Source of the DNA: a virus
DNA: 55,761 nucleotides
IMG/VR virus record: IMGVR_UViG_3300045988_162287
Direction: 5' to 3' (one strand)
Shown: positions 2,014 through 14,957 of the stretch, piece after piece
Numbering within the stretch: the first letter of the stretch is position 1
Layout of the letters: every line of letters starts with the position of its first letter
Notes under the pieces: generated by a model
What the model saw: only the letters and a program-made list of their open reading frames with translations
Told to the model about the DNA's origin: nothing
Database searches by the model: none
Program-made: the position numbers and the translations under genes

Positions 2014-4797
2014 ATGGTCGTATTGATGGAAGACGAGTCGAACTCGCTGTCCCATATTGGCGTCAAGCGCCGTTCCGGAAGGTACCCGTATGGATCTGGT
2101 GAGGATCCTTACCAGCATGAAGACTTCTACAAACGATATTTGGATCTCAAGAACTCCGGTCTAACCGAAAAAGAGATCGCCGATTCCATGGGGATCACCA
2201 CGACGAAGCTTCGTGCTCGTAGGACCATTATCTATAACGAGCAGCTTGCCCAGCGTCAGCATCGCGCCTATGAGCTCAAGCAGAAGGGATATTCCAATAC
2301 CAAGATCGGTGAGATCATGGGTGTGAACGAATCTACTGTTCGGTCCCTTCTTAATCCTTCGAGTCGTGCTCGAGCCAATGCGTCGACCATCATCGCCAAT
2401 AATCTCAAGGAGACCATCGGCAAGGATGGAGCGGTACAGATTGGAAAAGGCGTTGAGCAGTATCTGGGATATTCCCAGGACAAGCTCAAGGTCGCTGTTG
2501 CCATGCTCGAAGAAGAAGGTTACACGGTTCATTATATTTACACCAAGATGGGAGGTCCGAACCATACCACGGTCAAGGTTCTTGCCGCTCCTGGTGTGAC
2601 CGTTCGAGATTTGGTAAACGATCGTAATAAGATTAAGATCGTCGGTATGTCCCTTGATGAGCCTCACGAAGGTGGCGTTGGAATCAAGAAGCCGGTATCC
2701 ATCGATTCTAAGCGTCTTGGTGTTGTGTACGCTGAGGACGGAGGAACCGAACGTGATGGCGTCATGCTTATTCGTCCGGGAGCAGCTGATCTCGAACTTG
2801 GCGGTTCGCATTACGCGCAGGTCCGCATCAACGTTGATAACAGCCATTACCTCAAAGGTATGGCCATGTACGGTGATCCGGATCAGTTCCCGGATGGTGT
2901 GGACATCATATTCAACACGAACAAGAAGCGTGGAACCCCGATCGAGGGAACCGGCGATAATTCGGTATTGAAGCCGCTCAAGCGACTGACCAATCCGGAT
3001 GGAACGAAAGGCGATGTCGATTGGAGCAATCCATTCGGCGCCACCATAGATCCGATCAAAGGTCAGTATGAGTACGACGATCCAAAGACCGGGAAGAAGA
3101 AGCAGTCATTGATCAATAAGGTCAATGATGAAGGCGACTGGGATGACTGGTCGAGAAGCCTTCCTTCCCAGATGCTTTCTAAGCAGGATATTTCTTTGGC
3201 CAAACGTCAACTTGGCATTGATCTTGATCGTCGTCAGCGAGACTACGATGAGATCATGGCGTTGGATAATCCAGTAGTCAAGGCCAATCTTCTCAAGTCA
3301 TTTTCTGATGAGTGCGATTCAGCGGCAATTCATATGAAGGCCGCGGCGATGCCTCGTCAGAGGACTCAGGTTATTTTGCCTATCCCTTCCTTGAAGGACA
3401 ATGAGATATATGCTCCGAACTTCAGACCTGGCGAGAAGGTGATTCTTATTCGCTTCCCGCATGGCGGAAAGTTCGAAATCCCTGAGCTCACGGTCAACAA
3501 TAACAACAAGGAAGCCCGGGCGGCTCTTAGCGGATCCAAGGATTGTGTTGGTATCAATGCCAAAGTGGCCGAACGACTCTCTGGTGCCGATTTTGATGGC
3601 GACAACGTTCTGGTTATTCCGAACAACCGAGGCGAGATCAAGACTCGATCCGCTCTTGACGGTCTGAAGAACTTCGATCCCAAGACCGCATATCCTAAGT
3701 ATGAAGGCATGCGAGTCATGACGAAGCGTGAAAAAGGAAGAGAGATGGGCATCGTCTCTAACCTTATTACGGACATGACCATCAAGGGTGCTCCTTGGGA
3801 GGATATCGAGAAGGCGGTCCGCCATTCGATGGTGGTCATCGATGCTGAGAAGCACGAGCTGAACTGGAAACAGTCCGAACGTGACAATCAGATCGATCTT
3901 CTCAAGCAGAAGTGGCAGAGTCGAGGAGATGGAAAATATGGTGGAGCATCCACTCTTATTTCCAGATCCAAGTCTACCGAACGCATTCCAGAACGTAAGC
4001 TTCGTTCGGCCAAGGAAGGCGGATGGATCGACCCTGAAACAGGTGAGAAAGTCTACGTCGAAACCGGTCGAGAGAAAGTTGTTCCCGCCAAGAAGGACAA
4101 GGACGGAAAGGTTATTTCTTGGAAGAAGGTTCCAGCCGAATCGGTAACGGTGAAGATGGACCTTGCCAAGGATGCCTACGAACTTTCGTCCGGAACGGCG
4201 ATGGAAGGTGTCTATGCTGACTATGCAAATTCTCTGAAGTCCCTGGCAAACCAAGCCCGAAAATCGTATTTGAATTCTGGTTCGTTCAAGTATGATCCCC
4301 AAGCTGCAAAAACATACTCGTCAGAGGTCAGTTCCTTGAAAGCCAAACTCAATACGGCTCTCAAGAACGCTCCTTTGGAACGCAAGGCCGAGCTTCTTTC
4401 GGACAGTTTGTACGAAGCCAAGAAGGCGGCTCATCCAGAATATGAAAAGGACGATCTGAAAAAGCTTTCCAACAGGTGCCTTAATGAGGCCCGTATTGTA
4501 GTGGGCGCCAAGAAGCAATTGGTCGACATCACTGATAAGGAATGGGAAGCCATTCAGCATAGGGCCGTCAGCAAGAATACCCTTCAGCAGATCCTGCAAA
4601 ACGCGGATCCTGACAGAGTCAAGCAATTGGCCACTCCGAAACAGGGTGTTGCTATGTCGGCGTCCCTTGTTGCGAGGGCCAAGTCCATGCTCAATCGTGG
4701 TTACACACAGGCTGAAGTAGCCGATAGGCTTGGCGTATCAATAGATACACTGAAGCGTAATGTGACTACTAAGACTAAGGTGGCAGACAATGGCTAA
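2014..4797 (+). CDS. Putative single-subunit two-barrel (beta/beta-prime-like, YonO/QDE-1-class) RNA polymerase with N- and C-terminal HTH segments
   Basis: HYLKGMAMYGDPDQFPDGVDIIFNTN resembles the RNAP beta barrel (RHGNKGV...EDMP..DG.PVDIVLNPLG). VILIRFPHGG...GINAKVAERLSGADFDGDNVLVIPN resembles beta-prime (VLLNRAPTLHRLG...NADFDGDQMAVH). HTH-like segments: EIADSMGITTTKLRARR, KIGEIMGVNESTVRSLL and QAEVADRLGVSIDTLKRN. Confidence 0.6.
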   Translation: MVVLMEDESNSLSHIGVKRRSGRYPYGSGEDPYQHEDFYKRYLDLKNSGLTEKEIADSMGITTTKLRARRTIIYNEQLAQRQHRAYELKQKGYSNTKIGEIMGVNESTVRSLLNPSSRARANASTIIANNLKETIGKDGAVQIGKGVEQYLGYSQDKLKVAVAMLEEEGYTVHYIYTKMGGPNHTTVKVLAAPGVTVRDLVNDRNKIKIVGMSLDEPHEGGVGIKKPVSIDSKRLGVVYAEDGGTERDGVMLIRPGAADLELGGSHYAQVRINVDNSHYLKGMAMYGDPDQFPDGVDIIFNTNKKRGTPIEGTGDNSVLKPLKRLTNPDGTKGDVDWSNPFGATIDPIKGQYEYDDPKTGKKKQSLINKVNDEGDWDDWSRSLPSQMLSKQDISLAKRQLGIDLDRRQRDYDEIMALDNPVVKANLLKSFSDECDSAAIHMKAAAMPRQRTQVILPIPSLKDNEIYAPNFRPGEKVILIRFPHGGKFEIPELTVNNNNKEARAALSGSKDCVGINAKVAERLSGADFDGDNVLVIPNNRGEIKTRSALDGLKNFDPKTAYPKYEGMRVMTKREKGREMGIVSNLITDMTIKGAPWEDIEKAVRHSMVVIDAEKHELNWKQSERDNQIDLLKQKWQSRGDGKYGGASTLISRSKSTERIPERKLRSAKEGGWIDPETGEKVYVETGREKVVPAKKDKDGKVISWKKVPAESVTVKMDLAKDAYELSSGTAMEGVYADYANSLKSLANQARKSYLNSGSFKYDPQAAKTYSSEVSSLKAKLNTALKNAPLERKAELLSDSLYEAKKAAHPEYEKDDLKKLSNRCLNEARIVVGAKKQLVDITDKEWEAIQHRAVSKNTLQQILQNADPDRVKQLATPKQGVAMSASLVARAKSMLNRGYTQAEVADRLGVSIDTLKRNVTTKTKVADNG

Positions 4798-5428: not shown

Positions 5429-5776
5429 ATGGGGCGACGTAAGAAGCTCGATGGATCGTCTTCCCCTCAGTTCTCGCCCGCCTCTAACCCTGAGGAACGC
5501 GAGAATCAGATGATTTCGCTCGCCGTCAACCTTGCCGAGCAACAACTTCGCGAGGGGACGGCTTCATCTCAGGTCCTCGTGCACTATCTCAAGCTCGCTT
5601 CGACTCGAAACAAGCTTGAAGAGGAGAAGATCAAGTACGAGACGGCCATGCTTCAGGCCAAGAAGGATGCACTGAACAAATCTGGTCAGCTTCAAGAACT
5701 CATGGAGAACGCTCTGGAGGCGTTTCGTTCATATTCTGGAAATTCGGAAGGATGTGAAGTTCATGACGGACAATGA
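5429..5776 (+). CDS. Possible small terminase subunit
   Basis: 115-aa basic N-terminus plus coiled coil, first gene of the packaging block upstream of terL. The call rests on position and size only. Confidence 0.35.
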   Translation: MGRRKKLDGSSSPQFSPASNPEERENQMISLAVNLAEQQLREGTASSQVLVHYLKLASTRNKLEEEKIKYETAMLQAKKDALNKSGQLQELMENALEAFRSYSGNSEGCEVHDGQ

Positions 5777-6989
5777 ACTTTATCACTTCGGCGTCAAAGG
5801 CATGAAGTGGGGTGTTCGAAGGTATCAGAACGAAGATGGATCGCTTACCTCTCTCGGTAAGAAGCGCGATAAGATGCTTTCTGATCGGAAAGTCGCAAAA
5901 AGGAACTCGACCATTTCCAATATCGTTAAAGCGGAATATTCCCGTCGCGAATTTGAGGACGCCAAGACTCGACTGAAACTTGAAAACCAGACGAAAAAGT
6001 CAAAGCGTCGGCAGGATCTTGAGAAAAAGTATCTGAAGCAAGGGTTCGCCAAGGACGAGGCCGAGATCAAAGCTTATAATCGAGCTAAGACAGAAACAAT
6101 TCTTAAGGTTGCCGGAGGTATTGCTTTAGCATCCGCAGCGGCTTACGTTGCGTACAAGCATTACGATAAAGTCACCGATCGGGTATTCGAAAAGGGAAGT
6201 AAGATCGGTCGTTTGACGAGTGACGGATCGGAACAGACCAATAGGGCGTTTTATGGCTTCGTCAACAAGCACGACAAAGATCGGTATGAAGGTCTTTATG
6301 GAAAGACCCTTGGTAAGAACGGCACCGTATATCGAAAGGCCATGCGCGCTGCTGGCGATATTAATATTGCCTCCCCTGAATCCGCTCGAAAGGTTCTTAA
6401 GAACATGTTTGACACTGATAAGCAATCTTTCGATGCTTTTAAGAGGAACATAGATGTGATGGCCTTCGCGGTTCCTCCTACAACGAAGCAAGGACGACTT
6501 TGGCGTAAGGCCAAACAGGAACTTGATTCCGGAAAGATCGGTGATAACACCTATAAGGCGTTTAACACCGCACTTGTTCTTCACACACAAGAGCAACAGC
6601 CGATCAATGATAAATTCTATTCGGCTATGAAGAAGGCCGGATATGGTGCGATCCGCGATGTGAACGATAAAGAGAATTCCGGATATTTTGCCAGGAATCC
6701 GTTGATTGTATTCGATACCGATAAGATCGATGTCGAGGGATTCACGAAACTCGGAAGCGATCATATCAATTCCATGTTCGCTAAAGAGACGGGAAAGGTC
6801 GCTGCTCATGCATTGGCAAACGAGTATGGTCCTATTGGAGCCGTATTTGCGACTTCCATTGGAGCGATGAAACTCGTTAAGCGATCCAATGAGACAAAGT
6901 TCGTTGAAAACTATCGCAAGCAACATCCTGAGAGCACATTGTCCAATAATGAAATTCTGAAGATGAGAGATCGGATGATCAATGCTTAA
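5763..6989 (+). CDS. GVKGMKWG-module family protein 1 (408 aa)
   Basis: N-terminus MTDNELYHFGVKGMKWGVRRYQNEDGSLTSLGKKR, then a basic coiled region, a TM helix (ILKVAGGIALASAAAYVAY) and a globular C-terminal domain. GGAAGGA lies 9 nt before ATG 5763. Confidence 0.6.
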   Translation: MTDNELYHFGVKGMKWGVRRYQNEDGSLTSLGKKRDKMLSDRKVAKRNSTISNIVKAEYSRREFEDAKTRLKLENQTKKSKRRQDLEKKYLKQGFAKDEAEIKAYNRAKTETILKVAGGIALASAAAYVAYKHYDKVTDRVFEKGSKIGRLTSDGSEQTNRAFYGFVNKHDKDRYEGLYGKTLGKNGTVYRKAMRAAGDINIASPESARKVLKNMFDTDKQSFDAFKRNIDVMAFAVPPTTKQGRLWRKAKQELDSGKIGDNTYKAFNTALVLHTQEQQPINDKFYSAMKKAGYGAIRDVNDKENSGYFARNPLIVFDTDKIDVEGFTKLGSDHINSMFAKETGKVAAHALANEYGPIGAVFATSIGAMKLVKRSNETKFVENYRKQHPESTLSNNEILKMRDRMINA

Positions 6990-7518
6990 CGATACCGAAA
7001 TTAAAGATCTTTGTATTAACCGGCACATGATCACACCATTCGATGAGGCGAATCTTCAGCCGTGCAGTTACGACGTCACACTCTCTAAGAGCATCATACG
7101 ATATTTCGGTCGTGGTGAGATCAACGCCATGGATTACACGCTCCATGATCTGGAGTATATTCGTTTCGCCATGAACGATGACGGTTTCGTTCTCGATCCA
7201 AATGAATTCATTCTTGGTTCTACAAACGAGGGAGTGACGATCCCGAAGAACATCGCCGCGCGCTTCGAAGGTAAGTCGTCGCTTGGCCGTCTCGGTCTTG
7301 CGACCCATGTCACCGCCGGTTTCATCGATCCGGGGTTTACCGGTGACATCACACTTGAGATCAAAAACCTCAACAATCATCCGATCCGCATATTTCCAGG
7401 AATGAAGATCGGCCAACTGTGCTTCTTCGACCTTCATGATGATGTTGATCGAGCTTATGGATCGACTGAACTCGGATCTCATTATCAGCATCAATCAGGA
7501 CCGACGACAAGTCGGTGA
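6982..7518 (+). CDS. dcd: dCTP deaminase (dUTPase superfamily)
   Basis: GKSSLGRLGLATHVTAGFIDPGFTGDITLEIKNLNNHPIRIFPGMKIGQLCFF matches the Dcd signature GRSSLARLGL..HVTA..IDPG....LE..N...P..L.PGM.IG.L.F. Confidence 0.85.
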   Translation: MLNDTEIKDLCINRHMITPFDEANLQPCSYDVTLSKSIIRYFGRGEINAMDYTLHDLEYIRFAMNDDGFVLDPNEFILGSTNEGVTIPKNIAARFEGKSSLGRLGLATHVTAGFIDPGFTGDITLEIKNLNNHPIRIFPGMKIGQLCFFDLHDDVDRAYGSTELGSHYQHQSGPTTSR

Positions 7519-7556
7519 TATTTGGATTGCCCCTAGTGGGCGGAAAGGATATTCTT

Positions 7557-7997
7557 ATGAATTCTGAACTTTATCACTACGGCGTCAAAGGTATGAAGTG
7601 GGGCGTTCGGCGCTATCATAACGCCGATGGCACACTCACCTCCAAAGGTAAGGCCCGTCAGGCGAAACGAACCAAGAAGGCCCAGAAGAAGTGGGACAAG
7701 AACACGAGAAAGCATTGGGTCGAAGGGTATAATAAGGCCGCTGATTATTCCAATAACAACTTCATCAACAAGCTTAATGAGAAGTACAAGGATTACGATT
7801 TCTCGGATCGAACCAATAAGAAGACCCAGAAGGTCTATAAGCGCTATATCGAGGAGTACGTAAATGGCTTCAACAGTATTCTCGAAAAGAGCTATCGTGA
7901 GGTTCTTGGCGATCGTCCGGACGATCCGGGAGCTATTCGATCTCTTCCGTTCTATAATGATGCCAATTCGTTGTATCAAGCATGGCTGAATAATTAG
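7557..7997 (+). CDS. GVKGMKWG-module family protein 2 (146 aa)
   Basis: MNSELYHYGVKGMKWGVRRYHNADGTLTSKGKAR followed by a Lys/Arg-rich region; GGAAAGGA RBS. Confidence 0.6.
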   Translation: MNSELYHYGVKGMKWGVRRYHNADGTLTSKGKARQAKRTKKAQKKWDKNTRKHWVEGYNKAADYSNNNFINKLNEKYKDYDFSDRTNKKTQKVYKRYIEEYVNGFNSILEKSYREVLGDRPDDPGAIRSLPFYNDANSLYQAWLNN

Positions 7998-8007
7998 GAG
8001 GCGAATC

Positions 8008-9750
8008 ATGACCCTATCGAACACAGCCGTTCCGAAATACTACGGTCAATTTCGTGATAGGGTCATGGCCGGAGAGATCCCGGTATGCCATGAGATCGAG
8101 ATGGAGATGAATCGCATCGACGATCTCATTCGTAATCCAGGGATCTACTATGACGCCGATAAGGTCGAAGGATGGGTACATTTCTGCGAGAAGGAACTCA
8201 CCCTGACCGACGGATCTCCGGTTCATCTTCTCGATAGTTTCAAGCTCTGGGGCGAGCAGATATTTGGTTGGTACTATTTCGTCGAACGATCAGTCTATAT
8301 TCCGAATCCGCATGGAGGCGTCGGTCACTACGAGAACCGCAGGATCTGCAAGCGCCTGATCAATAAACTATATTTGATTGTGGCACGTGGCGCAGCCAAG
8401 ACCATGTTCGCCGAATTCGTCCAGGCATATTTCCTCATCATGGATACGTCGACGACTTCACAGATCGTCGTGGCTCCGACGATGAAGCAGGCTGAGGAAA
8501 CCATGGCGCCGTTCCGAACCGCCATCATCAGGTCACCCGGTCCGCTCATCAAGTTCCTGTCCGAAGGCTCACTTCCCGGCAACGGACCGAAATCTACTCA
8601 GGCCAAGCTCGCCTCGACCAAGAAGGGTGTAGAGAATTTCCTCACAGGCTCTCTTCTTGAGGTTCGTCCGATGTCAATCGACAAGCTCCAGGGTCTTCGT
8701 CCAAAGGTATCTACCGTTGACGAATGGCTGTCCGGCGATATTCGTGAGGATGTCATCGGCGCCATCGAACAGGGCGCGTCAAAGCTCGACGACTATCTCA
8801 TCGTGGCGACCTCGTCCGAGGGCACCGTCCGAAACTCAGTAGGCGATACCATCAAGATGGAGTTGATGGACATTCTCAAAGGAGAATACGTCAATCCTCA
8901 TGTCGCCATATTCTATTATCGGCTTGACGATACCAAGGAAGTTGCCAATCCGGATATGTGGGTCAAGGCAAATCCTAATCTTGGACAAACGGTTACCTAT
9001 GAGACCTATCAGCTTGACGTCGAACGTGCAGAGAAGGCCCCGGCCACACGTAATGATATTCTCGCCAAACGTTTCGGTATTCCGATGGAGGGTTACACCT
9101 ACTTCTTCACCTATGAGGAGACTCTTCCACATCGGAAGAAGGATTTTTGGGGGATGCCGTGTTCTCTTGGAGCCGATCTGTCGCAGGGAGACGACTTCTG
9201 CTCGTTCACGTTCCTCTTCCCATTGCCAGATGAGACCTTCGGCGTCAAGACGAGGAACTATATTTCATCATATACCATGCAGCATCTTCCTTCGGCGGCT
9301 CGTCAGAAGTACGAGGATTTCCTGAATGAGGGATCATTGTTCGTCATGGATGGCACAGTGCTCGATATGGTGCAGGTGTATGAGGATCTCGACAAGTACA
9401 TCACCGAGTCGGAGTATGATGTCCGTTGCCTCGGTTACGATCCCTATAACGCCAAGGACTTCGTGGTTCGATACACCATGGACTATGGAGAGTTCGGCAT
9501 CGAGAAAGTGATTCAGGGTGCCAAGACCGAATCCGTTCCGTTGGGCGAATTGAAGAAGCTGGCCGAGGATCGTCGTCTGCTCTTCGACGAGGAACTCATG
9601 TCGTTCACCATGGGCAACTGCATCGTCCTTCAGGACACGAACAACAACAAGAAGCTGTACAAGGCCAAGCGCGAGGACAAGATCGACGCCGTTGCGGCCA
9701 TGATGGACGCGTTCGTCGCGTATAAGAACAATCGCGACCTCTTCGACTGA
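8008..9750 (+). CDS. terL: Terminase large subunit
   Basis: 580 aa; Walker-A-like LIVARGAAKT, STVDEW Walker B, C-terminal RNaseH-like nuclease region (GADLSQGDDF...KIDAVAAMMDA); AGGAGG RBS. Confidence 0.9.
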   Translation: MTLSNTAVPKYYGQFRDRVMAGEIPVCHEIEMEMNRIDDLIRNPGIYYDADKVEGWVHFCEKELTLTDGSPVHLLDSFKLWGEQIFGWYYFVERSVYIPNPHGGVGHYENRRICKRLINKLYLIVARGAAKTMFAEFVQAYFLIMDTSTTSQIVVAPTMKQAEETMAPFRTAIIRSPGPLIKFLSEGSLPGNGPKSTQAKLASTKKGVENFLTGSLLEVRPMSIDKLQGLRPKVSTVDEWLSGDIREDVIGAIEQGASKLDDYLIVATSSEGTVRNSVGDTIKMELMDILKGEYVNPHVAIFYYRLDDTKEVANPDMWVKANPNLGQTVTYETYQLDVERAEKAPATRNDILAKRFGIPMEGYTYFFTYEETLPHRKKDFWGMPCSLGADLSQGDDFCSFTFLFPLPDETFGVKTRNYISSYTMQHLPSAARQKYEDFLNEGSLFVMDGTVLDMVQVYEDLDKYITESEYDVRCLGYDPYNAKDFVVRYTMDYGEFGIEKVIQGAKTESVPLGELKKLAEDRRLLFDEELMSFTMGNCIVLQDTNNNKKLYKAKREDKIDAVAAMMDAFVAYKNNRDLFD

Positions 9751-9763
9751 TTGGAGATTCAAA

Positions 9764-10507
9764 ATGGTGGATTTTTCCGATAAGCAACGGGCCATGCTGG
9801 CCAAACGAGGTCTTGCGATGCCCGACGGCGGCTATCCCATCAGGAATCGCAAGGATCTTCGCAACGCCATTCAGGCCTATGGTCGCGGCAATAGCAAGGA
9901 CAATGTTCAACGGTGGATCAAGAGGCGTGCCAAGCAACTTGACGCCGAGGACATGCTTCCAGAGAATTGGAGAACTTCGATGAACCATAGTGAAGAACTT
10001 TATCACTTCGGCGTCAAAGGCATGAAGTGGGGCGTTCGACGAGCCGAGCGTAAGACTCGCAAACAGGCCCGTAAAGACGCCCAGGAGACCGCTCAATCCA
10101 AGATGTATTACGGTGAAGGAGCCGGCGTTCGTCGACGCAACATCAATTCCGTGGTCAGGCAGCGTTCAAAAGATCCAACCTACAAGAAGGCTTTTGACGA
10201 AGAGTACTCAAAACAGGACATGGGCAAGGCTCGCCGTGACGCTGAACGACAGCGCAAACGTACCGATCGCACCGAACCGGTAAAGACCGGAATCGGTCGT
10301 GGTGTGAAGAAGGCTGTTCGTGCAGGAACCAAGGCTGTAACGTTCGCTGCGACGACCGCCGCAGGTGTGGCCGCTTCATACTATATTTCCCATCCGGATG
10401 AAGCCAAGCGAATGGTTAACACCATTGCCAAGAAGGCATCCAGTACGGTAAATAGGGCTCGGAACGTAGCCCGTGGCGCCCAGTTCCTTCGTAAGATGGG
10501 TCTGTGA
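9764..10507 (+). CDS. GVKGMKWG-module family protein 3 (247 aa) with an N-terminal AMPDGGYPIRNRKDLRNAIQAYGR domain
   Basis: Internal EELYHFGVKGMKWGVRRAERK (aa 77-96), a basic region and a C-terminal hydrophobic stretch (AVTFAATTAAGVAASYYI). Confidence 0.6.
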   Translation: MVDFSDKQRAMLAKRGLAMPDGGYPIRNRKDLRNAIQAYGRGNSKDNVQRWIKRRAKQLDAEDMLPENWRTSMNHSEELYHFGVKGMKWGVRRAERKTRKQARKDAQETAQSKMYYGEGAGVRRRNINSVVRQRSKDPTYKKAFDEEYSKQDMGKARRDAERQRKRTDRTEPVKTGIGRGVKKAVRAGTKAVTFAATTAAGVAASYYISHPDEAKRMVNTIAKKASSTVNRARNVARGAQFLRKMGL

Positions 10508-10911
10508 TGCGATCCTATCACGAGCTCATCCGGTATTCAGATTTTCTCGACCGGTTCCATTACCTGCAATGTCACGGATCCGTCGGACGTCCGACATTCG
10601 GTTCCGAACGTTGGATGAACCAGCGGTTCTATCGATCACCCGAATGAAAACACGTTCGTGATTTGGTGATCGCTCGGGACAATGGTTTCGATCTCGGGTG
10701 CCCCGATCATCCCATCGCCGGAAAGATCATGATCCATCACATCGAGCCGTTGACTCCGGATTTCATCGAACATGGTGACGATCTGCTGCTCGATCCGGAC
10801 AATCTTATCAGTTGTTCGTTGGCGACACACAACGACCTGCACTTCGGAACCGACGAACGAGCTCGCCCATGGGTCGAACGGAAACCCAATGACACCTGTC
10901 CATGGAGGTAA
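10507..10911 (+). pseudogene. HNH endonuclease interrupted by one in-frame TGA (10645-10647) at a conserved Trp position
   Basis: Same frame on both sides: ...NQRFYRSPE[TGA]KHVRDLVIARDNGFDLGC...IMIHHIEP...THNDLHFG. Small phage HNH proteins carry S.EWK..R at this point. Confidence 0.7.
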
Positions 10912-10950
10912 CTTCAAAATGATGGAATTTTATCGGATTGGAGGACCGTG

Positions 10951-11298
10951 ATGGATGAAAGCATTCTCAAATCGGTCAAGAAGGTACTCGGACTTGATCC
11001 CGAATCATCCGATTTCGATGAGGATCTTGTCATATTTATCAATTCGGCGTTCTTCAATCTCAGACAATTGGGAGTTGGTCCCTCGGAGGGATATTCGATC
11101 ACCGGAATCGAAGACACGTGGAGTGAATTCACTGATGACGATCAACTTCTTACTGGCGTAAAGCCATATATTCAGCAAAAGGTTCGTCTTCAGTTCGATC
11201 CGCCGACCAATTCGTTCCTTGGGCAATCGATCCGGAAGAACATCGAGGAGTATGAATGGCGTCTCAACATCCAAGGGGAAGGAGGTTTCAATGAATGA
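10951..11298 (+). CDS. Head-tail connector (gp6-like) protein
   Basis: ILKSVKKVLGLDPESSDFDEDLVIFINSAFFNLRQLG fits the gp6-like connector pattern; about 115 aa; GGAGGA RBS. Confidence 0.5.
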   Translation: MDESILKSVKKVLGLDPESSDFDEDLVIFINSAFFNLRQLGVGPSEGYSITGIEDTWSEFTDDDQLLTGVKPYIQQKVRLQFDPPTNSFLGQSIRKNIEEYEWRLNIQGEGGFNE

Positions 11299-11710
11299 GC
11301 TCTATCACTTCGGCGTCAAAGGCATGAAATGGGGCGTACGTAAGGATCGTAAGCGATCGGTAAGTTCCAAGCGTTCGCGATCGGACAGCAAGGATTACAC
11401 GGAAAGCCGAGACCTTCTCAAGAAGTCTCCGAACAAGTTGTCCAACACCGAGCTCCGTAAGATCAATGAACGACTCAATCTCGAACAACAGTATTCGAAT
11501 CTGACGACAAGTCAGAAGCAGAAAGGCAACCGGTTCATCGACAAGGTTGGTAACCAGATGAAGCAGACCGCGGCCAACGAGGTGTCGAAGCAGTTGATGA
11601 ATGTCGGCAAGATCGTTCTTGGAGCCGGAATCGCCTATGCGGCCAGCAGGGCCCGTGGGAACGGACAGTCATATTCATTCGACTTCGCTCGCAGGCAGAT
11701 CGGTCGGTGA
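11291..11710 (+). CDS. GVKGMKWG-module family protein 4 (139 aa)
   Basis: MNELYHFGVKGMKWGVRKDRKRSVSSKRSRS..., C-terminal hydrophobic stretch (IVLGAGIAYAA); AAGGAGG RBS. Confidence 0.6.
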   Translation: MNELYHFGVKGMKWGVRKDRKRSVSSKRSRSDSKDYTESRDLLKKSPNKLSNTELRKINERLNLEQQYSNLTTSQKQKGNRFIDKVGNQMKQTAANEVSKQLMNVGKIVLGAGIAYAASRARGNGQSYSFDFARRQIGR

Positions 11711-11716
11711 TGCCTA

Positions 11717-13024
11717 ATGAATGTCGTTACCGATGCATTGGCGCACGCATGGAATGCGTTCGTCAACCCGTCATCCAACTTCCGTCTGTCCGTCGGATAT
11801 TCCTCGGCGCGTCGTCCGGATACGCGGGTCTTCACCCGAGGCGTCGACCGATCGATCATATCCTCGCTGTACAACCGCATCGCCATCGATGTGAGCGCCA
11901 TCGAGATCCGGCATTGCCGTATTGACAAGACGACGCAGCAATATCTGGAGACGATCGACGACGGGCTCAATCAGTGTCTGAACATCGAGGCCAATATCGA
12001 CCAATCAGGCCGTGATTTCATCATGGACGTCGTGATGACCATGTGTGATGACGGGGCCGCGGCCATGGTGCCGATTGACACCACGGTGAATCCGATGAAT
12101 TCGAATTCGTTCGATATTCAGACCATGCGCGTCGGTCGTGTTGTTGAATGGTATCCTCGGGCCGTTAAACTTTCGGTCTATAATGATGCTCCGAACGCCG
12201 GCCAGCGGGAGGAGATCGTCATGCCGAAGTGCAAGGTGGCGATCGTCCAGAACCCGCTCTATCAGGTGATGAACGAGCCGAACTCTACCTTGCAGCGTCT
12301 GATCCGAAAGCTCAATCAGCTCGATACCATTGACGACAAGGCCGCGTCCGGCAAACTCGATCTTATCATCCAGTTCCCGTACCAGATCCGCACGGAGGAG
12401 AAGAAGCGACAGGCCGAACTCCGCCGTCAGCAGCTGGAGGATCAGCTCAAGGATTCCGCCTATGGCGTTGCGTACACCGACGGTTCCGAGAAGATCACCC
12501 AGCTCAATCGGAGTCTGGATAATCACATGCTTCAGCAGATCCAGAATCTGACGACCCAGCTCTACGGTCAGCTCGGCCTTTCCGAGGCCGTGGTGAACGG
12601 CACCGCCTCTCAGGAGGAGATGCTCAATTACCATAACCGCACCTTGGAGCCGATGATCTCAGCCATCTGTGACGCGCTGAAGCGAACCTTTCTGACCAAA
12701 ACCGCCCGAAGTCAAGGACAGAGCATCGAGTTCTTCCGCGATCCGTTCAGGTTGGTTCCGGTCACCGATCTGGCGAACATCGCCGCGGCATTCACGTCGA
12801 ATGAGATCATGTCATCGAACGAGTTCCGTTCGGTCCTTGGTTACGCCCGTTCCGAAGAACCTCAGGCGAATCAGTTGCGCAACGCCAACATCAACCCGCT
12901 CGGTACCGACGTGACCGCGCAGCAGCCGGAATCCATACAAGAACCAACCCAAGATTCAGCACAGCCTTCCATTCAGGATGTGCTGAACGCCCCAATGGAA
13001 GGAGACAGTCAAAATGGGGTATGA
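11717..13024 (+). CDS. Portal protein
   Basis: 435 aa, between terL and the protease-capsid gene; acidic C-terminus; size and position typical of portals. Confidence 0.6.
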   Translation: MNVVTDALAHAWNAFVNPSSNFRLSVGYSSARRPDTRVFTRGVDRSIISSLYNRIAIDVSAIEIRHCRIDKTTQQYLETIDDGLNQCLNIEANIDQSGRDFIMDVVMTMCDDGAAAMVPIDTTVNPMNSNSFDIQTMRVGRVVEWYPRAVKLSVYNDAPNAGQREEIVMPKCKVAIVQNPLYQVMNEPNSTLQRLIRKLNQLDTIDDKAASGKLDLIIQFPYQIRTEEKKRQAELRRQQLEDQLKDSAYGVAYTDGSEKITQLNRSLDNHMLQQIQNLTTQLYGQLGLSEAVVNGTASQEEMLNYHNRTLEPMISAICDALKRTFLTKTARSQGQSIEFFRDPFRLVPVTDLANIAAAFTSNEIMSSNEFRSVLGYARSEEPQANQLRNANINPLGTDVTAQQPESIQEPTQDSAQPSIQDVLNAPMEGDSQNGV

Positions 13025-14957
13025 TTTCAGTGGTTACGCCACGCGGAACAACATCCGTTGCTCCGACGGGCGAACCATTCTGAAGGACGCCTTCGCCGAT
13101 CAGGACGGTCAGAAGGTGCCGCTGGTCTACCAGCACAACCATAGCGACATCGATAACGTGCTCGGCCATGCCGTACTGGAGAACCGTGAGGATGGCGTCT
13201 ACTGCTATGGTACGTTCAACAGCACGCCGATGGGTCGCGACGCCAAAGAGCTCGTCAAGCACGGTGACATCACTGCACTGTCGATCTACGCGAACCATCT
13301 GACCGAACGCAACAAGAACGTCATGCACGGTAACATCCGCGAGGTGAGTCTAGTCCTTGCCGGCGCCAATCCCGGCGCCTACATCGACAATGTCACACTT
13401 CAGCATTCGGACGGAACTCAGGATCTTCTGGATGACGAGGCCGTGATCTACTCCGGCGAGGAGATCGTGCTTGAGCATGGCGATGAGGAAAGCGAGGATG
13501 ACATGCAGCATGCCGACGATTCCAAAACGTCGACCGCCAAGACCGAGGACGATTCGTCCGAGAAAGCGTCGGACAAAACGGTCCAGCAGGTCTGGGACAC
13601 TTTTACCGACAAGCAGAAGGACGCTGTATATGCTCTTATCGGCGCGGCCATTGGTGGTGCCGAGGAGAGCGTTGCACAGTCCGATATTTCGCATGCCGAT
13701 GACGAGTCTGACGATTCGTCTTCCGGCGAGACCGTTCAGGATGTCTTCGACACGCTGAACGAGGAACAGAAGAATGTCGCCTATGCTCTGATCGGCCTCG
13801 CCGTGGAGCAGGGTGATTCCGACACTGAGGACAGTGACGGAGAGAACAACAATAGCGCCTCCCATTCGGAGGAAGAAGGAGATATTATGTATATGAACGC
13901 CTTCGAACAGGCCGGTGCCGAGGATGAAGCTCCGGTCCTGTCCCACGACGACATGAAGGAATTCCTTACCGAGGCCAAGGACTACGGCTCGTTCCGTGAT
14001 TATTCCGAGAAGTGGATGCAGCACGCTGGCCAGAACTATGGCATCGAGAACATCGAAGTGCTCTTCCCTGATGCACGTCAGGTCGGCGACGAGCCGTACC
14101 TGTACAAGCGCGACACCGACTGGGTCGACGTCGTGCTCAACGGTACCCGTCACACCCCGTTCACCCGTATCAAGACCTCGTACGCGGATCTGACCGAGGA
14201 TGAGGCTCGTGCGAAGGGCTTTACGCTTGACCGCAAGAACAACAAGCGTAAGATGGACGAGGTGTTCAAGGTCTACAAGCGCGTGACCACCCCGCAGACG
14301 ATCTACAAGAAGCAGCGTCTCGATCGTGACGACGAGATCGACATCACCGATTTCAACGTGGTCAACTTCCTGTGGAACGAGATGAAGGTCATGATCCGTG
14401 AGGAGATGGCCCGTGATATTCTGATCGGCGACGGCCGTTCCGCCTCCGCCGAGGATCATGTCAACACCGAGAACGTCCGTCCGATCGTCGGTGATGATGA
14501 TCTGTACGTCATCTACAACGATGGTGCCAATCCGGCCACTGATCCGACCGCGTTCGTCGATCGCGCCCGTAAGGCCAAGGTTGGTTATATGGGCTCCGGC
14601 ATGCCGACCCTGTTCCTGTCCCCGAGCCTGCACGGCGAATTGATGGTGCAGCGCGATAAGGTTGGTCGTCGCCTGTACGACACCGATGCATCGCTGGCGG
14701 CCGCTATGGGTGTTTCTGCCATCGTTGAGGTCCCGGTTCTTGAGGGCTTTGAGATTACCGATGAGAGCAAGGTTGTTGATGGTGTGATGGTGAATCTGCG
14801 CGACTACACCATCGGCACCGATCGTGGCGGTGAGCTGACCCAGTTCTCCGACTTCGATATCGACTACAACCAGCATAAGTACCTCATTGAGGCTCGTCTC
14901 TCCGGTGCGCTGACCATGCCGAAGTCCGCCGTTGTGCTGACCCACCCAAAAGCGTGA
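13014..14957 (+). CDS. Fused prohead protease (S78/HK97-type), acidic scaffold-like linker and HK97-fold major capsid protein
   Basis: N-terminus FSGYATRNN...VPLVYQHNHSDIDNVLGH...GDITALSIYAN fits the S78 pattern. About 170 aa of acidic linker contains two repeats (TVQQVWDTFTDKQKDAVYALIGAAIGG / TVQDVFDTLNEEQKNVAYALIGLAVEQG). The C-terminal 350 aa or so are capsid-like. Confidence 0.75.
   Translation: MGYDFSGYATRNNIRCSDGRTILKDAFADQDGQKVPLVYQHNHSDIDNVLGHAVLENREDGVYCYGTFNSTPMGRDAKELVKHGDITALSIYANHLTERNKNVMHGNIREVSLVLAGANPGAYIDNVTLQHSDGTQDLLDDEAVIYSGEEIVLEHGDEESEDDMQHADDSKTSTAKTEDDSSEKASDKTVQQVWDTFTDKQKDAVYALIGAAIGGAEESVAQSDISHADDESDDSSSGETVQDVFDTLNEEQKNVAYALIGLAVEQGDSDTEDSDGENNNSASHSEEEGDIMYMNAFEQAGAEDEAPVLSHDDMKEFLTEAKDYGSFRDYSEKWMQHAGQNYGIENIEVLFPDARQVGDEPYLYKRDTDWVDVVLNGTRHTPFTRIKTSYADLTEDEARAKGFTLDRKNNKRKMDEVFKVYKRVTTPQTIYKKQRLDRDDEIDITDFNVVNFLWNEMKVMIREEMARDILIGDGRSASAEDHVNTENVRPIVGDDDLYVIYNDGANPATDPTAFVDRARKAKVGYMGSGMPTLFLSPSLHGELMVQRDKVGRRLYDTDASLAAAMGVSAIVEVPVLEGFEITDESKVVDGVMVNLRDYTIGTDRGGELTQFSDFDIDYNQHKYLIEARLSGALTMPKSAVVLTHPKA
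14945..14951 (+). promoter_or_regulatory. Candidate -1 programmed frameshift heptamer C_CCA_AAA
   Basis: An X_XXY_YYZ heptamer in the capsid zero frame (cac CCA AAA gcg tga), two codons before the stop. The -1 frame is open into ORF 14954. Confidence 0.5.

Follow-up and report, generated by a model that had tools for sequence, protein, structure and literature searches.

DUF7211, a short peptide module on shuffled basic proteins of the head gene block, as a candidate docking motif for virion cargo in a phage lineage

In phage T4, the capsid targeting sequence (CTS) of the internal proteins IPI-III and of Alt is a short N-terminal tag on unrelated and often basic cargo that is packed into the head and injected, with the prohead protease involved; the tag is about 10 residues long, poorly conserved and removed by gp21, which cuts after it. 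Encapsulin cargo-loading peptides are short and usually C-terminal, and they direct diverse cargo to the inside of an HK97-fold shell, with no DNA or ejection involved. The polyvalent proteins of Iyer et al. 2017 are said to be long chains of unrelated enzymatic modules, for which delivery together with the DNA and cutting into units have reportedly been proposed. The T4 CTS systems have been reviewed (PMC9026906, PMC7697877), and the MuF/SPP1 gp7 proteins have been proposed to travel in the capsid (PMC5576092). Here we analyse a stretch of viral DNA of 55,761 nucleotides (IMG/VR record IMGVR_UViG_3300045988_162287; "the window" means its whole length) in which four proteins, p1 to p4, share a short peptide module of the Pfam family PF23847 (DUF7211). 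We estimate the probability at about 0.5 that this module is a linear docking motif by which varied basic cargo is loaded into the virion or procapsid.

A preliminary description of this DNA had pointed out four paralogs with a common module, each followed by a basic stretch, and both observations held. All four open reading frames (ORFs) are present and co-oriented on the + strand, and each contains the consensus (N/E)ELYH(F/Y)GVKGMKWGVR(R/K). The modules were located by a DNA pattern and by alignment of the segments. The proteins, their modules and one internal junction are the following:

5763..6989, + strand: p1, DUF7211 protein of 408 aa (Pfam DUF7211, E 1.7e-11, 43.7 bits; PHROG 7502, unknown function; pI 9.8)
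5775..5819, + strand: module 1 (ELYHFGVKGMKWGVR)
7557..7997, + strand: p2, DUF7211 protein of 146 aa, directly 5' of the large terminase (TerL) gene (Pfam DUF7211, E 2.8e-11)
7566..7610, + strand: module 2 (ELYHYGVKGMKWGVR)
9764..10507, + strand: p3, 247 aa (Pfam DUF7211 at aa 77-95; PHROG 6291 at aa 75-246)
9969..9988, + strand: p3 junction (GGAG, 7-nt spacer, in-frame ATG at 9980, then N-H-S)
9995..10039, + strand: module 3 (ELYHFGVKGMKWGVR), internal in p3
11291..11710, + strand: p4, DUF7211 protein of 139 aa, directly 5' of the portal gene (Pfam DUF7211, E 1.5e-10; PHROG 7021, E 1.3e-24; pI 10.6)
11297..11341, + strand: module 4 (ELYHFGVKGMKWGVR)

A degenerate DNA pattern for GVKGMKWG occurs in the window at exactly four sites (5790, 7581, 10010 and 11312), with a chance expectation of 0.03 by shuffling and with none of 100 shuffles reaching four. 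The 45-bp module segments are 84-98% identical in pairs, and in the following 45 bp the similarity drops to 8-15 of 45 positions, with the exception of p1 and p2, where 29 of 45 positions match because both carry the extension RYxNxDGxLTSxGK. The module is N-terminal in p1, p2 and p4 and internal in p3, with the module His at residue 81. Net charge over the 60 residues that follow is +8 to +12 for every module, the whole proteins have a pI of 9.8-10.8, and Gly/Ala-rich hydrophobic segments lie within or end p1, p3 and p4.

The four proteins differ in what is joined to the module. In p1, the N-terminal module and its extension RYQNEDGSLTSLGKKR are followed by a basic tract, a hydrophobic, transmembrane (TM)-like segment at residues 111-131 and a predicted C-terminal domain of about 270 residues. 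The p1 frame extends upstream to a GTG at 5754 in the ORF listing, and the ATG at 5763 is the more likely start on sequence grounds because GGAAGGA sits 10 nt upstream of it. Homologs of p1 are found in ReqiPoco6 (gp021), ReqiPepy6 (gp020) and the Streptomyces BI phages (gp8/9). In p2, the N-terminal module and extension are followed by a basic tail, probably helical, with a charge of +12 over the 60 residues past the module, and the ATG is preceded at 7 nt by GGAAAGGA. In p4, a basic tract of Ser and Arg follows the N-terminal module, and the tail is hydrophobic and rich in Gly and Ala. In p3, the internal module comes after an N-terminal domain of about 75 residues (PDGGYPIRNRKDLRNAIQAYGR) and the junction MNHS, and it is followed by a basic tract that leads into a hydrophobic tail rich in Ala and Gly. 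The N-domain (AMPDGGYPIRNRKDLRNAIQAYGR...LPENW; 9764-9988) had no match in Pfam or PHROGs; it is conserved at 45-55% identity in distant relatives (P0161, P0199, P0203, P0218), always directly 5' of a module. The in-frame ATG at 9980 is 22 nt 5' of the module His codon and 15 nt before the 45-bp module, and from this start p3 may be made in a second form of about 175 aa besides that of 247 aa. Many p3 relatives encode the short form alone, and relatives of 173 aa begin MVDELYHFG.

The 25-position model of DUF7211 covers exactly the conserved module, and p1 to p4 score 43.7, 43.0, 41.2 and 40.7 bits against a gathering cutoff of 27. The preliminary description had placed the module outside any characterised family, and this remains true in the sense that the Pfam entry gives no function and that neither DUF7211 nor the module peptide was mentioned in the literature searched. 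Likewise, the motif is unmentioned in comparative papers on actinophages and Rhodococcus phages, no meaningful matches of p1 to p4 were found in NCBIfam or PADLOC, and a Protein Data Bank sequence search with p1 and with the module profile (E up to 10) gave no match to a solved structure. In PHROGs, the module proteins are spread over a dozen families, every one of them of "unknown function". The core H-x-G-[VI]-K-G-[MQ]-[KR]-W-G is kept in p1 to p4, in the Gordonia phage Jodelie19, in the Rhodococcus phage ReqiPepy6, in orf7 of the Lactococcus phage 1706 and in 150 representatives, a sample that, like the 80 loci considered below, is biased toward the best module matches. The full form is (D/E)-x-L-x-H-[YFH]-G-[VI]-K-G-[MQ]-K-W-G-V-R-[RK], often extended by RYQNxDGSLTxxGKxRY. 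Jodelie19 has four copies and ReqiPepy6 eight, all with the same peptide and with freely varying Gly, Val and Lys codons. As judged from these comparisons, the constraint on the module is at the level of the protein, since synonymous sites differ between phages, and the higher identity of the module DNA inside the window is apparently best explained by recent duplication or gene conversion.

The family is widespread and characterises a very large lineage of Gram-positive siphoviruses, which takes in several actinophage clusters, Lactococcus phage 1706 and both phages and prophages of Faecalibacterium and Clostridia. A first homology search with the 43-residue module gave short fragments only, which served as profile input and for spotting deletion variants. 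A profile search, which the preliminary description had suggested together with an inspection of the neighbourhoods of hits, found among 1.84 billion representative proteins 42,675 clusters (at 50% identity) at E up to 1e-3 and 22,796 at 1e-10. Isolates with the module include Streptomyces BI, Arthrobacter, Gordonia DJ, Rhodococcus CC, Microbacterium, Curtobacterium and Faecalibacterium phages and Lactococcus phage 1706. These module-bearing phages are the supercluster of Koert et al. (bioRxiv 10.1101/842583), of which common head genes, a protease-capsid fusion (described also in PMC5513430) and a YonO-like RNA polymerase flanked by helix-turn-helix (HTH) domains are hallmarks. In a scan of reference genomes, the module was found in prophage-like regions mainly of Lachnospiraceae, Ruminococcus, Faecalibacterium and Eubacterium and also of Collinsella and Eggerthellaceae; the scan contained no close relative of the window phage, the best module match being 79% in an unclassified bin. 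The phage type of the window is very abundant in public metagenomes, where distinct p1 and p3 sequences with more than 90% identity to its own number in the hundreds. That many of these near-identical relatives sit on contigs of 50-57 kb, the window's own size, suggests that the window is a complete genome.

The position of the module genes in the head block is the first line of evidence for a role in the virion. The genes nearest to them are these:

8008..9750, + strand: terminase large subunit (Pfam TerL_nuclease, E 8.9e-37, and TerL_ATPase)
10948..11298, + strand: head-tail connector (Pfam Phage_connect_2, E 1.6e-30)
11717..13024, + strand: portal protein (Pfam Phage_portal, E 2.7e-18)

The end of p4 is 6 nt from the portal start. 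In a survey of 80 IMG/VR loci, picked as best module matches, homologs of the head and packaging genes of the window were present in 78, and all 217 modules were co-oriented with the head genes. Most of the modules were located between TerL and portal (123) or 5' of TerL (64), and only 2 lay beyond the portal start. Among the scored modules 5' of TerL, 67 of 69 were downstream of the terS-like gene, and overall 215 of the 217 modules fell into the interval from the terS-like gene to portal. The surveyed loci had 1-6 modules each, the portal ORF was a median of 543 nt away from the last module (68 loci), and the polymerase gene was upstream in 22 of the 23 loci with sufficient flank. Judged from these loci, the arrangement with four paralogs is a hallmark of the lineage and not a peculiarity of the window genome.

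The second line of evidence is the free exchange of what follows the module. Among p3 relatives with more than 90% identity across the N-domain and the module, four or more unrelated C-termini begin directly behind MKWGVR[KR], which bears out the earlier picture of a constant module with variable cargo, and the N-domain itself is present, missing or partly deleted. Metagenomic relatives of p1 with in-frame deletions (P0010, P0013, P0014, P0068) have the module and basic stretch joined to the last ~30 residues (...HPESTLSNNEILKMRDR...); some deletion variants are only 51-71 aa, and other short matches were frameshifted or ended by contig edges. The top-scoring members of DUF7211 are long proteins of up to 1,569 residues with 2-5 modules. 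Thus, P0321 consists of three p1-like units and then a p4-like unit, P0309 of a p3-like and a p2-like unit, and P0337 of a p3-like and a p4-like unit. The three polyprotein relatives that were looked up all adjoin the portal gene, and two of them follow TerL or a TerL-sized gene, the contig of the third ending just upstream. Among the recognisable cargo of 49 polyproteins are GNAT acetyltransferases (5), a glutamine deamidase domain (Gln_amidase, "papain fold toxin 1"; 3), a domain resembling 2H/2'-5' RNA ligases (2_5_RNA_ligase2) and HTH segments, and one unit matches PHROG 7625, "head morphogenesis". Some members have been labelled acetyltransferase or RNA ligase by actinophage annotators. 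One polyprotein, P0283, was considered as a fusion of the polymerase to DUF7211 due to its HTH/sigma-r4 matches, and this was rejected, as BLASTP aligns the HTH segments only and not the polymerase.

The third line of evidence connects the polyproteins to the prohead protease. In the window, the protease is fused to the capsid protein through an acidic linker:

13014..14957, + strand: fusion of prohead protease (S78), acidic linker and major capsid protein (Pfam Peptidase_S78 at aa 5-128; net charge -64)
13464..13958, + strand: acidic linker, aa 151-315 (motifs LEHGDE, MQHADD, ISHADD, ASHSEE and LSHDDM; two repeat copies)

The fusion protein aligns with the protease/capsid fusions of Jodelie19, ReqiPepy6 and Bing, and its linker has a charge of -35 over 150 residues. 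In the representative set, a His occurs 4-40 residues 5' of the internal module in 177 of 202 cases, against an expectation of 38%, with Ser as the next residue in 47%, Asp/Glu after that in 45%, and Lys/Arg in front of the His in 42%. The distance from this junction to the module is mostly 10-14 residues, matching the leader of 5-16 residues of N-terminal modules. The motif H-[SAGD]-[DE] has a density per 100 residues of 1.17 in the junction zone versus 0.066 in the rest of the same proteins, and of 1.18 in the protease-capsid linkers of 51 fusion proteins versus 0.14 outside the linker; elsewhere the density is 0.005 in TerL, 0.014 in portal and 0.049 in the polymerase. In the window, there are nine such motifs in the fusion protein, five of those in the linker, and p3 carries the motif once, at residue 75, exactly at MNHS-EELYH. 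The idea that "KHS" is the normal C-terminus of stand-alone units was rejected, as only 28 of 192 ORFs had H[SAGDT] in the last 15 residues; stand-alone module ORFs typically finish in Lys/Arg runs. As stand-alone proteins do not finish with the junction motif, it belongs to fusion points. It is probable that x-H-[SA]-[DE] marks candidate cleavage sites of the prohead protease, and the simplest reading of these sequences is that cutting there would free the capsid protein from the protease and split the polyproteins into module-headed units. The module would then probably be kept on the mature protein, because the candidate cut lies upstream of internal modules and not after them. The linker also holds two copies of a repeat of 25-28 residues (TVQQVWDTFTDKQKDAVYALIGAAIG and TVQDVFDTLNEEQKNVAYALIGLAVE; pattern TVQxVxDTxxxxQKxxxYALIG), with the repeat sequence TVQDVFDTLNEEQKNVAYALIG and the conserved form TVQxVFDTLxEEQKNxxYALIG. 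Homologs from Gordonia, Rhodococcus, Streptomyces and gut phages keep at least one of the copies, and the repeat is probably a built-in scaffolding element.

The fourth line of evidence comes from the RNA polymerase and from phage 1706. The polymerase features in the window are:

1963/2011-4797, + strand: YonO-like RNA polymerase ORF (PHROG 4291, E = 0)
2047..2100, + strand: N-terminal motif LSHIGVKRRSGRYPYGSG of the polymerase (half-motif search; hhalign)

The gene, with a likely start at an ATG near 2011-2023, is directly 5' of the head block and encodes a single-subunit polymerase with HTH/sigma-r4-like domains near both ends. A half-motif of the module, [LIMV]xH[YFHIRW]G[VIT], matched in the six frames of the window only one long ORF besides those with the module, that of the polymerase, and in phage 1706 it was likewise found nowhere outside the module protein and the polymerase. 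The N-terminal consensus of the polymerase is (D/E)-x-L-x-H-Y-G-[VTIM]-x-R-x-S-G-R-Y-P-W-G-S-G (window form SLSHIGVKRRSGRYPYGSG), and it is present in all 22 intact homologs from the IMG/VR loci. Comparison of this motif to DUF7211 with hhalign gave a probability of 73% (P 3e-5, 15 columns), which is suggestive of a relationship at the sequence level. In the GenBank record of 1706, most products are named "putative ..." or "unknown", whereas orf7 and orf75 are named "structural protein", presumably that laboratory's term for virion proteins detected by mass spectrometry. The orf7 gene, between the connector and TerL genes, has two modules (ILQHRGVIGMRWG and ILLHKGVKGMKWG), and orf75 is the YonO-like polymerase; its deposition as a structural protein suggests a virion-packaged polymerase in the lineage.

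Structure prediction, which had also been suggested earlier, was informative for the module and not for p1. For the 43-residue module (AlphaFold2, alignment of 55 sequences), the mean predicted local distance difference test (pLDDT) was 73.6; residues 1-20 with the core motif had no regular secondary structure (pLDDT 60-67), followed by a small beta-bridge in YQNEDGSL and a helix from residue 30. This model fits a linear motif that folds on binding to a partner. The model of p1 was unusable with a mean pLDDT of 49.6, its alignment being shallow and the available homologs more than 90% identical.

Taken together, the data are consistent with the following sequence of events, in which we infer the binding partner, the cleavage, the retention in the virion and the ejection. 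The head genes would be expressed together, and the module, situated 5-16 residues from the mature N-terminus and predicted to be unstructured alone, would bind a conserved site of the procapsid. Candidate receptors are the linker that joins S78 protease and capsid protein, with its acidic residues and repeats, and alternatively the portal. Attraction between this linker (-35 per 150 aa) and the basic tracts of the cargo (+8 to +12 per 60 aa) could aid docking. The S78 protease would then cut the linker and the cargo polyproteins at x-(L)-x-H-[SA]-[DE]-like sites, leaving module-headed units trapped with the DNA. At infection, the cargo would exit with the DNA: in the window phage, small proteins with hydrophobic Gly/Ala-rich segments, and in relatives GNAT acetyltransferases, the papain-fold deamidase toxin domain and the 2H/RNA-ligase-like domain. 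The YonO-like polymerase with its LxHYG motif would enter the host by the same route. Compared to docking as such, we consider it a more tentative proposal, possible and somewhat doubtful, that LxH[YFH]G[VI]KG[MQ]KWGVRR and its polymerase cousin LxHYG..RxSGRYPWGSG form a lineage-wide "load and eject" signal for a virion polymerase and shuffled effectors, the latter encoded as separate genes or as polyproteins cut at x-H-S-D/E. The preliminary description had seen in the locus the logic of capsid targeting or of polyvalent proteins, and had suggested a check for cleavage by the S78 protease after the module. The first part gains circumstantial support from the position in the head block, the swapped C-termini, the enzyme and toxin cargo of polyproteins and the label of the 1706 protein. 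The second part is not borne out by the sequence statistics, in which the candidate x-H-S-D/E site lies upstream of internal modules.

Several points weigh against loading into the virion. The virion evidence from 1706 consists of GenBank product names only, and the similarity of the polymerase motif to DUF7211 spans just 15 columns at 73% probability. The link of H-S-D/E to the protease is a statistical association that gives a candidate site only. No Rosetta-stone fusion of the module to portal, TerL, capsid, connector or polymerase was found in the 80 loci. The word "effector" is an extrapolation from a minority of the cargo, most of which is without recognisable function. Additionally, TM-like segments such as those of p1, p3 and p4 are unusual for proteins inside a capsid, and a membrane role in the infected cell fits them equally.

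The last point leads to an alternative in which p1 to p4 are membrane-acting proteins of the producer cell, serving in lysis timing, superinfection exclusion or as assembly anchors, with the motif binding a target in the host envelope or cytoplasm. Besides the hydrophobic Gly/Ala-rich segments of p1, p3 and p4, this would account for the annotation of the p1 homolog ReqiPepy6 gp020 as a "hypothetical membrane protein" and for the lysin and holin genes just 5' of the block in many relatives. However, the modules track the slot between TerL and portal and not the lysis genes, which in the window are not adjacent, and many cargos are soluble enzymes or, as in p2, basic tails without a hydrophobic segment. 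As 1706 orf7 was also deposited as a structural protein and the junction motif matches that of the prohead-protease linker, a membrane function seems unlikely. We consider it very unlikely that the four proteins are accessory factors of DNA packaging, similar to small terminase or bound to portal or terminase, with the motif binding TerL or portal and the basic tract binding DNA. A core factor would hardly vary between 1 and at least 8 copies per genome, exchange its C-terminus for unrelated ones or carry enzymes and toxins. In addition, 53 distinct loci have a terS-like gene conserved separately upstream, and no TerS family, HTH or oligomerisation domain was detected in p1 to p4 in the Pfam, PHROGs and NCBIfam scans. 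The case for packaging is made by the location of p2 directly 5' of TerL, the usual slot of small terminase, and of p4 directly 5' of portal, by the highly basic nature of all four proteins and by HTH segments of one polyprotein relative that weakly match "Phage_terminase small subunit".

The motif could also be a mere handle for processing or assembly, such as a protease recognition site, a chaperone site or an oligomerisation strand, or it could bind the polymerase, the proteins being accessories of transcription. It is true that in polyproteins the motif is tightly tied to the candidate protease junction, and the related motif of the polymerase could mean a shared partner or homotypic pairing. 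Yet stand-alone genes keep the motif without an upstream junction, so that it is needed where there is no processing, and the genes belong to the late head block, some 3-4 kb away from that of the polymerase, with cargo that is not transcription-like; a handle of this kind is therefore improbable. Least credible of all is that the 45-bp repeat acts as a DNA or RNA element, such as a hot spot of recombination or a signal for translation or transcription at gene starts, with the peptide incidental. The identity of 84-98% between the four window copies, most synonymous sites included, and the exact coincidence of the module with the breakpoint of C-terminal swapping in relatives would be expected from such an element. 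Between phages, however, GGC/GGT/GGG/GGA, GTC/GTA/GTT and AAA/AAG vary while the peptide is invariant, and the peptide is conserved from phages of Actinobacteria to those of Firmicutes, also inside long ORFs. The patch of homology provided by the module may nevertheless promote shuffling as a by-product.

Of the genes interleaved with the module genes, the labels given earlier were mostly retained. Pfam confirmed dCTP deaminase (dcd), TerL, Phage_connect_2 and Phage_portal, and also Peptidase_S78, whereas the HNH gene was identified via PHROGs alone (phrog_4321), with no Pfam family found. The putative "terS-like" ORF at 5429-5776 has as its sole match PHROG 4259, of unknown function, and this label is thus less secure than the others. 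The dCTP deaminase gene (6982-7518) between p1 and p2 looks like a recent, moron-like insertion, since only 4 distinct homologous ORFs were found at this position among the 80 loci. The HNH gene (10504-10911) is broken by an in-frame TGA at 10645-10647, which replaces the conserved Trp of ...FYRSPEWKHVRDLVIARD present in the close relatives L017 and L018 and in 25 other homologs. The apparent cause is a nonsense change from TGG to TGA, an error in sequencing or local readthrough, and not a recoded genome, because TGA is an ordinary stop nearby (p3 ends in TGA, 10505-10507).

If loading by the module is true, it would give a role to genes that lie unannotated between terminase and portal, by the tens of thousands, in phages and prophages of gut Clostridia as well as in actinophages, of which hundreds of SEA-PHAGES genomes have them. 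A store of injected effectors, among them acetyltransferases and toxin domains of the deamidase type, would come to light, probably together with a YonO-type RNA polymerase carried in the virion. Further, loading would provide a candidate cleavage rule for S78 protease-capsid fusions and a portable, sequence-defined tag for putting foreign proteins into phage heads.

Compared to the known systems, p1 to p4 are members of a Pfam family whose entry is functionally blank, and to that entry we add that the module is restricted to a lineage, has a characteristic position in the gene block, occurs also in polyproteins with a junction motif and may be linked to virion proteins. Like the T4 CTS, the module is a short N-terminal tag on unrelated basic proteins with candidate involvement of a protease. 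Unlike the T4 CTS, it is 16-30 residues long, almost invariant across phyla and more often repeated, its candidate cut is upstream, and the two share no sequence similarity. A T4-type cut directly after the tag was also looked for: neither H-[SAGD]-[DE] nor any other recurrent site follows the module, the recurrent site being 4-30 residues upstream of internal modules. The similarity to MuF/SPP1 gp7 (PMC5576092) lies in the location next to the portal gene, in the constant N-terminal part with variable, sometimes toxic C-terminal cargo, and in the proposed travel in the capsid. However, MuF forms a folded domain with over 100 residues and occurs once per protein, whereas DUF7211 is a linear motif with 1-5 copies per protein and from 1 to at least 8 per genome, and no Phage_Mu_F-type Pfam domain was matched in p1 to p4 at E up to 0.1. 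In contrast to polyvalent proteins, each DUF7211 unit is headed by the same motif and bordered by candidate protease junctions, and in the window the units are separate genes. With encapsulin cargo-loading peptides, the sequences are unrelated and the likeness is one of analogy only. Similar to the virion-packaged N4 vRNAP and polymerases of crAss-like phages, the lineage has a polymerase that may be packaged, as it is labelled "structural protein" in 1706 and carries an N-terminal motif related to the module; here it is a single-subunit two-barrel enzyme with HTH flanks. By analogy, the DUF7211 system resembles the T4 CTS, MuF/gp7 and polyvalent proteins in its apparent way of working, and it belongs to none of them.

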